DNA of 64,000 nucleotides from an uncultured Ignavibacteria bacterium (GCA_964552775.1 CAZKIH010000011.1:15206-79205); one strand, 5' to 3'; shown: positions 10,046 to 56,182, counted from the stretch's first letter. The notes: generated by a model from the letters alone, not told the origin. Made by a program: numbers and translations.

Positions 10046-11419
10046 ATGCAGGAACAAATCAATGCTCTATGGGACAGGTGTCTCTCCAGCTTGTCCAAGC
10101 GCGTGAACAAGCCCTCATTCTTCACGTGGCTCAAGCCAATTCGAGTGGAATTCGTCGACGGCAATTGCTTCAACATACTCGTTCCAAATAATTTCGCGGC
10201 TCATTGGATTTCCGAGCGATATCGCCAGGCAATTAGTGAAGCGCTGGCCGAAGTCTCTGAACAGTCGTGGAATTTCGATTTCAAGATCCAGAAAGCCCCG
10301 GTGCAGGTTGAGATGTTTCCGGGCGAACCGGAGGAGGACCAACCGGCGATCATCGTCAGTGGCAATGGAAGCGGACACAACGGCCACCCAGCCCCAAAGC
10401 TGAATCCACGCTACTTATTTGAGAGCTTTGTCGTTGGTGATTCAAATCAATTCGCCTATGCTGCCTGTGAGGCTGTCTCTGAAGCCCCCGGAGAAAACCG
10501 TTATAACCCTCTCTTCATTTACGGCGGTGTCGGTCTCGGCAAGACTCACTTGGTGCAGGCGATCGGAAATGCCGTCTGCCAATCCAGTCCAAAGCTCCGC
10601 GTCATGTATGTTTCCAGCGAAAACTTCACGAACGAGTTCATTCGTTCCTTGGCCACCAAATCCGTTCACGAGTTTGCCAATCGCTATCGCACGGCTGACC
10701 TCCTTCTGTTGGATGACATTCAGTTCTTCACTGGCAAAGAATCAACCCAAGAGCAGTTCTTTCACACCTTCAATGCCCTGCATCAGGAAGGCAAGCAAAT
10801 CGTCCTGACCGCAGATCGTCCCCCGAAGGACATCCTTGGTCTCGAGGAAAGATTATTGTCGCGATTCAGCTGGGGACTGGTAGCCGATATTCAACCTCCG
10901 TCACTCGAAACCCGGGTAGCAATTCTGCAGAAGAAAGCCGAGAGTGATGGTGTCACCGTTCCCAATGACGTACTCACCTATATTGCCGATTCGATCACAT
11001 CAAATGTCCGTGAGCTTGAAGGCGCTTTGGTAAGACTCGTCGCCTATGCCTCCCTGCGCAAAAAAGAATTAACGATGTTGTTAGCCCAGGACGTCCTCAA
11101 AGACTCCATTCGCTCAAAGTCGAAGCCGGTGACCATTGAACAAATCCAGAAGGAAGTAGCGTCCTATTTCAAGATTTCTGAAGAGATGTTGAAGTCAAAA
11201 AAGAAGACTCAGGAAATTGTTACGGCACGTCAGGTGGCCATGTATCTTTGCAGAACACTAACAAGTTCATCTCTCAAACTGATTGGCATCAACTTTGGAA
11301 ATCGCGATCATTCGACTGTTATCCATGCCTGCCAACAAGTGCAGGACAATATGAAATCCTCAATGGATTTCAAATTGCAGATTGATCAACTCATCAACTT
11401 GACATGTAGTCACAAGTAG
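10046..11419 (+). CDS. dnaA: Chromosomal replication initiator DnaA
   Basis: AAA+ Walker A GGVGLGKTHL, LLLDDIQF, and the C-terminal DnaA-box-binding domain (ARQVAMYLCR...). Confidence 0.97.
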   Translation: MQEQINALWDRCLSSLSKRVNKPSFFTWLKPIRVEFVDGNCFNILVPNNFAAHWISERYRQAISEALAEVSEQSWNFDFKIQKAPVQVEMFPGEPEEDQPAIIVSGNGSGHNGHPAPKLNPRYLFESFVVGDSNQFAYAACEAVSEAPGENRYNPLFIYGGVGLGKTHLVQAIGNAVCQSSPKLRVMYVSSENFTNEFIRSLATKSVHEFANRYRTADLLLLDDIQFFTGKESTQEQFFHTFNALHQEGKQIVLTADRPPKDILGLEERLLSRFSWGLVADIQPPSLETRVAILQKKAESDGVTVPNDVLTYIADSITSNVRELEGALVRLVAYASLRKKELTMLLAQDVLKDSIRSKSKPVTIEQIQKEVASYFKISEEMLKSKKKTQEIVTARQVAMYLCRTLTSSSLKLIGINFGNRDHSTVIHACQQVQDNMKSSMDFKLQIDQLINLTCSHK

Positions 11420-11654
11420 GTGTATAACACTGTGGAAAAAATGACGGAAAAGAATTACTTCACAATCAATCCAAGTTTTCCATGTACACCAGTGTTGTTG
11501 TCAACACCACAGCAAACTCGCATGTTGTTCCATGACAAGAATATCCCTTTACAAAAAAACTTCTCCACACTACTATTATGACTATTATTCTTAGATTAAC
11601 TTAAGTTTATAACAAGAGTGCGGCGGCAATTGTGAATACTGAGGAAGCAACAAA
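11420..11654. promoter_or_regulatory. dnaA-dnaN intergenic region: candidate oriC / DNA unwinding element
   Basis: DnaA-box-like 9-mers TGTGGAAAA (11431-39), TTTTCCATG (11476-84), TTCTCCACA (11561-69). AT-rich tract 11541-11610. Confidence 0.4.
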
Positions 11655-12764
11655 ATGAAATTCACTTTAACAACTGACAAAATCCAATCAGCTCTAAGCG
11701 CGGTAATGAGTGCTGTACCGACTAAATCAACTTTGCCTATCCTTGGTAATATTCTTATGGAAGCTGATGGCAAATCTTTGAGCCTATCTGCAACTGATTT
11801 GGAGATTTCAATCACGACGTCGTTGGAAGTTAAGGCTGCCAAAAAGGGATCAGTTGCCATTCCGGCTAAGACATTTGCCGATATTATCAACGCACTTCCT
11901 CAGACTGAAATCGAAATTGAATCAGTTAATAACCGCATTGAAATGCGCTTTGGCACCGGTGATTACAAAATCTCCGGAATGTCCGCCGATGAATTTCCCA
12001 AACTTCCCGAATACGATGCTAAAAAAGAAATCCGCATTCCCGCTGATGTCGTCCGCAACTTGATTGCCAAGACCGCCTATTCGGTCTCAACCGATGAGAC
12101 TCGCCCAGCACTCAATGGCATTCTTTGGCAGACCAATGGGGAGCGGATGCGCATGGTGGCCACCGATGGTCATCGTTTGTCGCGCGCCGAGGCCGACAAC
12201 ACCAAATTGCAGGGTTTGCATGGCGATGTTATCGTCCCACCCAGAGCATTCAATCTGATCAACAAACTGGCAAGTGAGAGTGTTAGCGAGGTCGGCGTTG
12301 TATTTGGTGAAAACACCCTTGTGTTCATCTGTGGTAATAACACGATCAGCACGCGCATCATCGAAGGTCCGTACCCGAACACCGATCAGGTGATTCCTCG
12401 CAACAACGACAAGAATTTGATTGTCCCCAAAACGCTGCTGATGGAAACCCTCCGCCGCGTATCGATTCTCTCCAATTCACTGACCCGCCAGGTCAAGTTT
12501 ACCATCACGAACAATACCCTCGAACTCTCGGCAACCAATGTTGATCTTGGTGGTGAAGCTGTCGAGAAGATCCCTTGTCAGTATGATTCCGATGACTTGG
12601 AAATCGGCTACAATGCCCAGTATGTCCTCGATATCCTCAAACAGCTCGACGGCGACGAAGTGCGTTTCGCACTGTCGTCCTCAACCGCAGCCGCAGTTGT
12701 AACCTCCCTCGACGACGGCGCTGATTATCTCTGCCTGGTCATGCCACTCAGACTAGCGGACTAA
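11655..12764 (+). CDS. dnaN: DNA polymerase III beta sliding clamp DnaN
   Basis: 369 aa; canonical three-domain clamp sequence (MKFTLTTDKIQSALS..., ...LCLVMPLRL). Confidence 0.95.
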   Translation: MKFTLTTDKIQSALSAVMSAVPTKSTLPILGNILMEADGKSLSLSATDLEISITTSLEVKAAKKGSVAIPAKTFADIINALPQTEIEIESVNNRIEMRFGTGDYKISGMSADEFPKLPEYDAKKEIRIPADVVRNLIAKTAYSVSTDETRPALNGILWQTNGERMRMVATDGHRLSRAEADNTKLQGLHGDVIVPPRAFNLINKLASESVSEVGVVFGENTLVFICGNNTISTRIIEGPYPNTDQVIPRNNDKNLIVPKTLLMETLRRVSILSNSLTRQVKFTITNNTLELSATNVDLGGEAVEKIPCQYDSDDLEIGYNAQYVLDILKQLDGDEVRFALSSSTAAAVVTSLDDGADYLCLVMPLRLAD

Positions 12765-12823
12765 TGGGTGTGACGAATTCAGTCGCTCGTAGACGCTCGC
12801 TGAATGGCGAACTTAGTTGATTA

Positions 12824-54616: not shown

Positions 54617-54630
54617 TGCTTCCTCTTATC

Positions 54631-54921
54631 TCAAGTAAAATAGATATCCGTAACGATCGTATCGCCAAGCCGCGTGTTCAGCTTGTCAATCATCTCAGCC
54701 TTGGTGTAATTGAGTTCCTGCCGCCACGCCGATGATGCCACACGCACCGTAAGTACGCCGCGCTCAATTTGAATGGCCTGCGCCTTCGCAGCGATTTTCT
54801 CACCAACCACCTCGGCAAAAACATGAACCGCTTCAAACTCGCGAATTCTGCGGTCCAAACCGAGATTCGTAAAGGTCCGTTTTAGAACTTTGCCAATGGA
54901 TTCCGCACGTCGCAACATCAA
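54631..54921 (-). CDS. DUF721-family protein (DciA-like, candidate helicase-loading factor) between recF and gyrB
   Basis: 96 aa. Position equivalent to Bacillus yaaB/remB. Confidence 0.55.
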   Translation of the reverse strand: MMLRRAESIGKVLKRTFTNLGLDRRIREFEAVHVFAEVVGEKIAAKAQAIQIERGVLTVRVASSAWRQELNYTKAEMIDKLNTRLGDTIVTDIYFT

Positions 54922-55069
54922 TTCCCACCGCTAAATAAGCTATTAATATACGATTTTATGCCCTCGACAGGCAAGATAAAACTCCCCGCAGGCGGGCTTT
55001 TTCGCCGTCACAATCGATTGTCAGGCAATGAGTTAAAAAGTAGCTACATTTTGTCGATTTTTGGTAATC

Positions 55070-56182
55070 CTAACTTTCAATTTTCAACAACCGTCCATTG
55101 ACAACAGCAATTTCAGCCTGTATTGATGCGGTCTCCCGCAATTCTGCTGGATTGGCTGTTGTGAGGAAAACCTGCCCCAATTGCGGAAGCGACTTCATCA
55201 GCGCTGCTAACCGGTTTGGGTCAAGATCGCTCGCAATTTCGTCCAATAGCAGCAACGGCGCATCGTGTAATCGCTCCGTCAAGTAGTCGTAGATCGCGAA
55301 TTTGATTGCCAGAGCCGCCGACTTGGCCTCGCCCTGCGATGCATAGCCCCGCATTGGCTCCGAATTCAGGTTGATACTGACATCGTCGCGGTGCGGTCCG
55401 GTTGAGGTTGAACCCATATAGAGATCGCGCTTGCGCGAGGATGTCAACTTCAACAGGAAATTTTGCGGCGCCGATGGATCAACAGTAATCGATGACTCGT
55501 ACCGCCACGACAACACGCTGTTGCCCGACTCGATCGTGCGATAATAACCGGCCAGCCGGTCCGTGGCGGCGCTGATCATCGCCATCCGTTTGCCGTTCAC
55601 CCGGGCTCCGACCGCGGCGAGCTGACCGTCCCAAACATCAAGCATCTCAAAGTCCGTTGGAGAATCCTCGCCGATCTCAAATTCTTTCAACAGAGAATTA
55701 CGCTGAGCGAGAATTCGATTGTATTCGAGCAGGTCATTGAGATAAGTCCTGTCGGCCTGTGATAGATAGAGGTCGAGTAATCGCCTGCGCACCGCCGGTG
55801 CGCCATAAATCAGTTCCGTATCCTCGGGAATATACGACACCGCGTGGAAATAATCGAAAAGATCGGCCACCCGGGTCAGCTTGATACCGTCAGCCTTGAT
55901 TTGCCTCTTTAGTCCGGCGCCCCAGGCTATTTCAATCGTCGTTTCACGACCATTGATCAGGCCGTCGACCTCGATTCGACACACATCCGCGGTCTTGCGC
56001 ATCAACACATCATCACTCGCCGTGCGAAATGACCGCGCCGTGCAAGCAAAGAATATCGCCTCAATAATCGAGGTCTTGCCTGAACCGTTTGGCCCGCCAA
56101 TCAAGTTGACTGATGGCTGCGGCGAAAACCCCAATTCAGAGACATTTCGAAAATTGACCAACTTGACACGCGTGAGATGCAT
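55070..56182 (-). CDS. recF: DNA replication and repair protein RecF
   Basis: Walker A GPNGSGKTS; SMC-like signature; Walker B LLLLDE. Confidence 0.95.
   Translation of the reverse strand: MHLTRVKLVNFRNVSELGFSPQPSVNLIGGPNGSGKTSIIEAIFFACTARSFRTASDDVLMRKTADVCRIEVDGLINGRETTIEIAWGAGLKRQIKADGIKLTRVADLFDYFHAVSYIPEDTELIYGAPAVRRRLLDLYLSQADRTYLNDLLEYNRILAQRNSLLKEFEIGEDSPTDFEMLDVWDGQLAAVGARVNGKRMAMISAATDRLAGYYRTIESGNSVLSWRYESSITVDPSAPQNFLLKLTSSRKRDLYMGSTSTGPHRDDVSINLNSEPMRGYASQGEAKSAALAIKFAIYDYLTERLHDAPLLLLDEIASDLDPNRLAALMKSLPQLGQVFLTTANPAELRETASIQAEIAVVNGRLLKIES

Follow-up and report, generated by a model that had tools for sequence, protein, structure and literature searches.

In Bacillus subtilis and many other bacteria the genes of the origin-proximal cluster follow a canonical order, with rpmH on one side and dnaA-dnaN-recF-gyrB(-gyrA) on the other. 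The DNA considered here, 64 kb from an uncultured Ignavibacteria bacterium (GCA_964552775.1, CAZKIH010000011.1:15206-79205; the whole of this stretch is referred to as the window), resembles that cluster in that all its member genes lie within 46 kb and its three sub-blocks are intact, but 43 kb separate dnaN from recF, which lie on opposite strands, and the block from rpmH to parB, which diverges from dnaA in the canonical layout, is here downstream of that gene and on its strand. Two units, each formed by a gene for a REP-associated tyrosine transposase (RAYT) and by sequences of the repetitive extragenic palindromic (REP) type, are located in this region, one after dnaN and the other between gyrB and gyrA. 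In all likelihood, the split is an old rearrangement of the lineage, and the two units are ordinary systems of RAYTs and REP doublets (REPINs) that have travelled as passengers in spacers tolerant of insertions.

RAYTs belong to the HUH/Y1 enzymes. On single-stranded DNA they attach to the hairpins of their cognate REPs and cleave them, thereby spreading REPINs; they are single-copy genes, vertically inherited, which occupy the same extragenic space within a species and are sometimes lost along with the decay of their REPs (PMC5581495; bioRxiv 10.1101/2021.07.10.451892). The closest described systems are those of Pseudomonas and Enterobacteria (Nunvar 2010; Bertels & Rainey 2011; Ton-Hoang 2012; Bertels et al. 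2017, PMC5581495), with which the units of the window share a RAYT of ~157-159 aa assignable to NCBIfam NF047646, with the HUH motif and the catalytic Tyr, the flanking by its own GTAG-headed palindromic REPs, some of them as inverted doublets (REPINs), and the occurrence in a single genome of two or more RAYT/REP families, every one with a REP of its own. They differ in the host, which is Zixibacteria-like and not a member of the Proteobacteria, and in which they are known from the 64-kb window and the loci of its relatives; in that the RAYT next to dnaN (RAYT-A) is just 56-57% identical to the RAYTs of the same spacer in relatives whose DnaN is 92-95% identical; and in that both RAYTs of the window are co-directional inside runs of replication genes.

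A second term of comparison is provided by the inversions mediated by repeats (insertion sequences (IS), rRNA or REP copies), of which the IS-mediated chromosomal inversions in the long-term lines of E. coli are an example (PMC4173774). The window is like these in having a large inverted segment beside a repeat-rich spacer, and unlike them in that no repeat is common to both ends of the segment and no polymorphism of orientation is seen among the relatives.

Gene order in the window and in its relatives

The identities of the genes in the window come from Pfam and NCBIfam matches. The features on which the argument depends are given below; the loci of relatives with which they were compared are numbered L001, L002, and so on.

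10046..11419 (+): dnaA; Pfam Bac_DnaA, Bac_DnaA_C and DnaA_N.
11420..11654: dnaA-dnaN spacer, AT-rich (36% GC), with 2 DnaA-box variants of one mismatch each.
11655..12764 (+): dnaN; Pfam DNA_pol3_beta domains 1-3; the canonical dnaN-recF linkage has its left breakpoint at the 3′ end of this gene.
13647..15550 (-): two tandem PTA_PTB genes, conserved neighbours downstream of dnaN in L001-L006.
22068..32292 (+): block rpmH-rnpA-yidD-yidC-mnmE-(CarboxypepD_reg gene, -)-mnmG-rsmG-parA-parB, collinear in L035, L036 and L039.
22068-22217 (+): rpmH; Pfam/NCBIfam.
~22306-22542 (+): rnpA; C-terminal Pfam match.
22535-22756 (+): yidD; Pfam/NCBIfam.
22.8-32.3 kb (+): yidC, mnmE, mnmG, rsmG, parA and parB; Pfam/NCBIfam.
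36381..49009 (-): block continuous with gyrA, with a pentapeptide-repeat protein, PEP mutase, glyoxalase, ECF-type sigma factor, DUF4396, two epimerases, EpsH, EpsI, UbiA, DUF6599 and a 422-aa protein.
49049..51523 (-): gyrA; Pfam DNA_topoisoIV and DNA_gyraseA_C.
52673..54616 (-): gyrB; Pfam.
54631..54921 (-): dciA (DUF721, PF05258), 96 aa; the NCBIfam DUF721 match is below the cut-off, and the orthologues of relatives are annotated as PF05258 DciA.
55070..56182 (-): recF; TIGR00611, 302.7 bits; Pfam SMC_N.
56183..56252: recF/SIS spacer, the true right-hand boundary of the displaced recF block, without REP.

A preliminary description, made from the sequence alone, had placed dnaA-dnaN on the plus strand and recF-DUF721-gyrB-gyrA far off on the minus strand, with rpmH...parAB as a third separate block, and had considered the cluster to be split and inverted. 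The domain matches agree with all of this: from the dnaN stop (12764, +) to the recF start (56182, -) there are 43.4 kb, the rpmH...parB block lies between the other two, and neither the contiguity nor the co-orientation of dnaA-dnaN-recF-gyrB is found. The orthologues of the gene next to recF, dciA, are assigned to a family of helicase loaders (PMC9865707).

When the genome collection was scanned with DnaN, 12 loci were obtained, at 80-96% identity, whose records bear the label Zixibacteria or "uncultured Ignavibacteria", and the window itself appears to come from a Zixibacteria-like genome. In six metagenome-assembled genomes (MAGs; L001-L006) DnaN is 92-96% identical; these loci are collinear with the window from 1.8 to 24 kb, and in them dnaA-dnaN is followed by two PTA_PTB genes, 3HCDH and ECH, and never by recF. 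The other end of the window (44-64 kb) is collinear with L019, L024/L025 and L026/L027 (RecF 82-84%), in the order alaS-PcrB-SIS-recF-dciA-gyrB-spacer-gyrA, where the recF/SIS junction is kept in L024/L025, and the order persists with an insert of 1.1-1.3 kb between SIS and recF in L019, L026 and L027, while L035-L037 cover the middle of the window. Two contigs join these segments: on CAVOPW010000004.1, L006 (526263-547369) abuts L035 (505445-526149) and together they match the window from 1.8 to 44.4 kb, and on CAXXYO010000003.1, L026 (2440130-2461230) and L036 (2464480-2485184, opposite orientation) match it from 22.7 to 64 kb, in the same relative order and orientation. The supporting assemblies are independent, come from different samples and species, and include contigs of 0.84, 1.34 and 2.84 Mb; in every relative examined the adjacency of gyrB and gyrA is kept. 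Since the architecture recurs in independent assemblies of different species, it is neither recent nor chimeric, and the order from 1.8 to 64 kb is by all appearances old, fixed and vertically inherited; the split arrangement is common to all the sampled relatives with DnaN ≥80%.

The ancestral order can be read in more distant genomes. In L030 and L032, distant Zixibacteria (DnaN 67-68%), the run is Lon-(Mrp)-dnaA-dnaN-recF-dciA-gyrB-gyrA, and the outgroups L013-L015 and L017 have dnaA-dnaN-recF(-dciA-gyrB-gyrA); in L030, L032, L014 and L015, dnaA-dnaN-recF-gyrB are contiguous and co-oriented. As the distant Zixibacteria and the outgroups retain the canonical order, this order is the ancestral one and the split, with its inversion, the derived state. 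Mrp precedes dnaA both in the window and in L032. The minus-strand segment of the window at 39.6-56.2 kb is collinear with the L032 run recF-dciA-gyrB-gyrA-epimerase-epimerase-EpsH-EpsI, which places the break exactly between dnaN and recF; UbiA comes next in L032, and the window has ~6 kb of extra genes after gyrA compared with the L032 run. The block from recF to EpsI seems, therefore, to have moved as one unit.

In this history the ancestral dnaA-dnaN-recF-dciA-gyrB-gyrA would have been cut between dnaN and recF, and the recF...gyrA...EpsI block would have been inverted, to lie now 43 kb downstream of dnaN. The simplest course of events for the window would be one inversion of ~43.4 kb, with breakpoints at dnaN/recF (12.8 kb) and beside SIS (56.2 kb). 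The region has also changed in other lineages. In CAZNWJ010000001.1, a genus-level relative (DnaN 82%, RecF 66%), the cluster is split as well: dnaN occupies 412.9-414.0 kb on the plus strand and recF 439.9-441.0 kb on the minus strand, and there recF is the divergent neighbour of htrA-rpmH-yidC-...-MoxR, with the EpsI/epimerase block beyond and the rpmH block past recF, a layout which implies at least one further transposition of blocks within the clade. CP070674.1, a complete Zixibacteria genome, has kept dnaA-dnaN-recF and lost the dciA-gyrB linkage, and erosion of the cluster is thus common in the phylum.

A separate observation concerns L007, where dnaN is followed (11120-11500) by the open reading frame (ORF) of an AAA-type ATPase with a RecF-like N-terminus (MLRRLEVTNFLSW...NTGKSNLL), which tblastn did not detect as recF and which could pass for recF in automated synteny calls.

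The two RAYT/REP units and the turnover of their spacers

Both units, which the preliminary description had recognized after dnaN and between gyrB and gyrA, hold up under profile searches with NF047646, the equivalog model of the REP-associated tyrosine transposases (cut-off 80 bits), and GTAG-headed hairpins or REP copies flank each of the two genes. The features of the unit after dnaN are:

12821..12866 (+): REP-A copy 1, a GTAG head and then two hairpins; DNA fold -16.4 kcal/mol, z -7.5.
12877..13350 (+): RAYT-A, REP-associated tyrosine transposase, 157 aa, co-oriented with dnaN; NF047646 90.2 bits; Pfam Y1_Tnp.
13329..13375 (+): inverted REP-A partner, GCGGC hairpin plus GACAGGCAAGAATGTCTGTCCCACC; pattern match, fold.
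13393..13438 (+): REP-A copy 2; pattern match.
13467..13544 (+): duplicated RAYT-A 3′-end remnant with inverted REP-A partner; 82% identical to 13298-13375.
13564..13609 (+): REP-A copy 3; pattern match.

And those of the unit between gyrB and gyrA:

51573..51608 (+): REP-B copy (GTAGGTCGGGTTC... hairpin); pattern match, fold.
51684..51753 (-): duplicated RAYT-B 3′-end remnant; 83% identical to 52113-52182.
51756..51791 (+): REP-B copy; pattern match.
51793..52044 (-): 83-aa ORF within the REP-B cassette, bracketed by REP-B copies; no Pfam match; homologue in the same cassette of L026 (~14290-14540).
52061..52096 (-): REP-B copy 3′ of RAYT-B; pattern match, fold.
52119..52598 (-): RAYT-B, 159 aa, in the orientation of gyrB and gyrA; NF047646 97.1 bits.
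52609..52644 (-): REP-B copy 5′ of RAYT-B; pattern match, fold.
60784..60796 (-): solitary head of REP-B type (one mismatch), lying between alaS and recX; pattern match.

The two proteins carry the HUH motif and the Tyr of the family, as HVH in PNHVHLV and LNYMLNNPV in RAYT-A, and as HLH in PDHLHVM and LNYIHYNPV in RAYT-B, and both are far under the cut-off of the NCBIfam IS200 model. They are, however, only 32% identical to each other over 82 aa, and their repeats are distinct: REP-A (GTAGGTCAGACATT) differs from REP-B (GTAGGTCGGGTTC), and neither is present at the site of the other. REP-A consists of GTAGGTCAGACATTCCTGTCTGACC plus a second GCGACC/GGTCGC hairpin, with copies at 12824, 13396 and 13567 and inverted partners at 13349 and 13518, and REP-B of GTAGGTCGGGTTC...GAACCCGAC, with copies at 51573 (+), 51756 (+), 52084 (-) and 52632 (-) and a degenerate copy at 60784. 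The two patterns are absent from all the shuffled sequences, and the folding energies of the hairpins range from -11 to -16 kcal/mol (z -3.4 to -7.5 against shuffles). Each of the two loci contains a duplicated remnant of the RAYT 3′ end, of 70-78 nt. As for dispersed copies, the window has the single REP-B-like one at 60784, and the CAZNWJ genome has REP-B in at least three different spacers. By their proteins and flanking repeats the two units are two separate, ordinary REPIN-RAYT systems, in which each RAYT would recognize its own GTAG-headed REP hairpins and spread REPs in extragenic space.

With regard to their inheritance, RAYT-B shares 80.5% identity with the RAYT that occupies the gyrB/gyrA spacer of L026, where RecF is 82%, a behaviour that apparently fits the picture of RAYTs in the literature, with the same extragenic space and vertical inheritance. 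RAYT-A is only 55-57% identical to the RAYTs in the same dnaN/PTA spacer of L002, L003 and L006; those of L003 (4079-4633) and L006 (11290-11802) are 88% identical to one another, in hosts whose DnaN is 92-95% identical to that of the window, and the REP-A of the window bears an extra second hairpin. The orthology of RAYT-A with the RAYTs that occupy this site in relatives is, on these values, doubtful. Because the site has been kept but the protein is just 56-57% identical to the RAYTs of L003 and L006, the comparison suggests either that the resident RAYT-A/REP allele was replaced or that it underwent a fast co-evolution with a variant REP.

The content of both spacers varies widely among the relatives. 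Between dnaN and PTA, L004 has a 77-bp spacer with a single REPIN, L001 one REP and the gene of an M48 peptidase, L005 the gene of a methyltransferase without any clear REP, and L003 and L006 arrays of REPINs with an intact RAYT; in L002 (11111-13893) the RAYT is split by the gene of a 431-aa transposase of the Mutator/IS256 family, with ~10 REPIN copies around it. Between gyrB and gyrA, the cassette of RAYT-B, REP-B and the 83-aa ORF is found in the window and in L026, four REP-B copies without RAYT in L033, and another GTAG-headed palindrome (GTAGGGGCG...) in L024 (212 bp, no RAYT/REP-B) and in L027 (which adds a 278-aa ORF). L026 (13511-14637) and L027 (13511-14551) have identical RecF and flanks with 97.5% nucleotide identity, yet their gyrB-gyrA spacers are wholly different, and this spacer is thus polymorphic within the species. 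The 3′ spacer of dnaN and the gyrB-gyrA spacer are both hot spots tolerant of insertions, whose content changes fast while the order of the flanking genes remains fixed.

Other observations on these spacers may be added. L024 (13511-13722) and L027 (13560-13680) hold a third family of GTAG-headed palindromes (CGTAGGGGCG...CGCCC) together with a CCCCTCTTGAGAGGGG / GGCTCCGAGCC hairpin module, REP-B being absent. In the CAZNWJ genome, the slot between mnmE and mnmG (L039 1600-4050) has three small ORFs with six REP-B copies bracketing them. Finally, in GCA_964370935, contig 2 (L025) stops after gyrB, and on contig 5 (L005) dnaN lies ~38-39 kb from the contig start and points towards it, a position that agrees with the distance from dnaN to gyrA in the window; this assembly was probably interrupted within the gyrB-gyrA spacer, which is rich in palindromes.

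The part of the repeats in the rearrangement

The order of the genes does not co-vary with the repeats, as it remains the same in genomes whose spacers contain a RAYT, REPs alone, other palindromes or unrelated genes. The repeats would then be passengers of the rearranged region, without a demonstrated causal role. Several points weigh against reading the split as an old rearrangement with the two units as passengers. Firstly, REP-A is situated exactly at the dnaN/recF breakpoint in the window, in L001-L004 and in L006, and in L011 a double hairpin similar to REP-A follows dnaN, with different genes downstream. Secondly, the relatives were sampled as loci of at most 21 kb, to which the counts of REP copies are restricted, as they are to the 64 kb of the window. 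Furthermore, the history of a single inversion is one that we infer, and it predicts an ancestral PTA-PTA beside SIS-PcrB-alaS. Lastly, oriC was not located in the window, and either block may be the one inverted relative to replication.

The first of these points is the starting place for an explanation in which the repeats took part at one end only: the REP-A/RAYT-A cluster would have made the 3′ spacer of dnaN fragile, through nicking by the RAYT or breaks induced by the hairpins, so breaking the dnaN-recF linkage, with later changes downstream. In its favor, most of the window's clade has REP-A at the breakpoint, L011 has the similar element, and the genes downstream of dnaN are not the same in L007, in L008/L010/L012, in L011 and in the clade of the window. 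However, L007, L008, L010 and L012 are also split but have no REP after dnaN, and the canonical L030 and L032 have none in the dnaN-recF spacer; any spacer that lives long gathers REPs, so the co-location would also be expected after the event; and the 56-57% identity of RAYT-A to the RAYTs of the same site points to a replacement, not to an ancient resident. We consider this explanation unlikely.

A related proposal extends fragility to function, in that the placement of the RAYTs would be non-random, their expression would be coupled to that of the replication genes, and the REP-A cluster would have been the fragile site that broke dnaN-recF. RAYT-A downstream of dnaN and RAYT-B between gyrB and gyrA are both co-directional, with positions kept across species, and such a coupling would fit HUH/Y1 transposases that act on single-stranded DNA at replication forks. 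Scans around both RAYTs for the consensus of sigma-70-type promoters and of intrinsic terminators gave nothing above shuffles, although the consensus may not suit this phylum. This proposal must be held to be quite improbable.

The preliminary description had gone further, seeing RAYT/REP elements at both junctions and proposing that REPs had mediated the inversion, that is, that recombination of the dnaN-side unit with the gyrB-gyrA unit rearranged the origin region. Two RAYT/REP units do stand beside replication genes in a rearranged region, and in enterobacteria there are reports of chromosomal duplications joined at REPs. As regards the junctions, the part that stands is the one at dnaN/recF; the gyrB/gyrA spacer is a canonical adjacency and not a junction, and the true junction, recF/SIS, has no REP, as neither reading of the sequence nor pattern search found a REP-A or REP-B match at 56183-56252. 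At the block boundaries of the CAZNWJ genome, likewise, no REP-A or REP-B was found. As to the recombination, the two families are unrelated, with 32% identity between the RAYTs, different REPs and no homology between the sites, and with no repeat in common the two units could not have recombined with each other; nor does any repeat family lie inverted at both breakpoints, REP-A being found only at 12.8-13.6 kb and REP-B only at 51.5-52.6 and 60.8 kb. Moreover, an end in the gyrB/gyrA spacer would have parted gyrB from gyrA, yet both are adjacent and co-oriented, and relatives share the same gene order where the repeats are absent or reduced (L024, without RAYT-B or REP-B; L005, without RAYT-A or a clear REP; and L004, with its single REPIN), an outcome which the preliminary description had itself named as contradicting its reading. 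Inversion mediated by the REPs is, therefore, very improbable.

That the contig is a chimera joined at the repeats of 12.8-13.7 kb and/or 51.5-52.7 kb, a possibility raised by the preliminary description, can practically be dismissed, since, although short-read assemblies can be broken or wrongly joined at REP arrays and the related MAG GCA_964370935 has a contig ending directly after gyrB, the dnaN/PTA, gyrB/gyrA and recF/SIS junctions and the whole order from 1.8 to 64 kb are all reproduced in independent assemblies.

Origin of replication and neighbouring genes

Neither the GC skew of the window nor the per-gene GC and AT skews at the third codon position (GC3, AT3) switch anywhere in the window, and none does so near dnaA. 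On the coding strand, the GC3 skew averages -0.14 in the plus-strand genes (6.8-36.3 kb) and 0.00 in the minus-strand genes (36.4-64 kb), and the AT3 skew differs in the matching direction. This weakly suggests that the plus strand is the net lagging strand across the whole window, with a large gene-specific bias, in which case dnaA-dnaN and rpmH...parB would be head-on to replication. DnaA boxes (≤1 mismatch) are sparse near dnaA, just one to three in the sequence upstream of it and in its spacer with dnaN, where relatives have 2-3, and this spacer is a possible component of oriC.

Another candidate is the spacer between the bactofilin gene and that of a 234-aa protein (33512-33678; 167 bp, 38% GC), with two perfect inverted DnaA boxes (33534-33542 and 33624-33632) 81 bp apart, and which also holds the variant TGTGGAAAT. 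The positions of the boxes are strictly conserved in five loci (L035-L039), including a genome whose 234-aa protein is just 59% identical. This spacer may be a promoter regulated by DnaA, or it may belong to an origin that has been displaced from dnaA.

The scans of the window with Rfam and for tRNAs gave no matches. In the rpmH...parB block, the gene between mnmE and mnmG (25862-27745, -), on the opposite strand, encodes a 627-aa protein of CarboxypepD_reg/dockerin type, and after parB come the genes of an M23 peptidase and of the bactofilin. The two PTA_PTB paralogues (13647-15550, -) are divergent, with ~25-29% mutual identity, and in every close relative the pair stays beside the genes of 3HCDH and enoyl-CoA hydratase. 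Directly downstream of gyrA lies the gene of the pentapeptide-repeat protein (485 aa; 47552-49009, -), where L024 has a gene with an AIPR domain; pentapeptide proteins such as Qnr and MfpA are DNA mimics that interact with gyrase.

In summary, what the window contains is a lineage-specific gene order together with two ordinary REPIN-RAYT systems, in a phylum where such systems have received little attention. The striking disruption of the textbook origin cluster is the old and stably inherited gene order of one lineage of Zixibacteria, and through the two units a candidate phylum that has been little studied gains REPIN-RAYT systems that behave typically, that is, the same extragenic space across species, loss, replacement and disruption by an IS. 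The palindromic elements and small cargo genes in the 3′ spacer of dnaN and in the gyrB-gyrA spacer can, in addition, break short-read assemblies at these marker genes.

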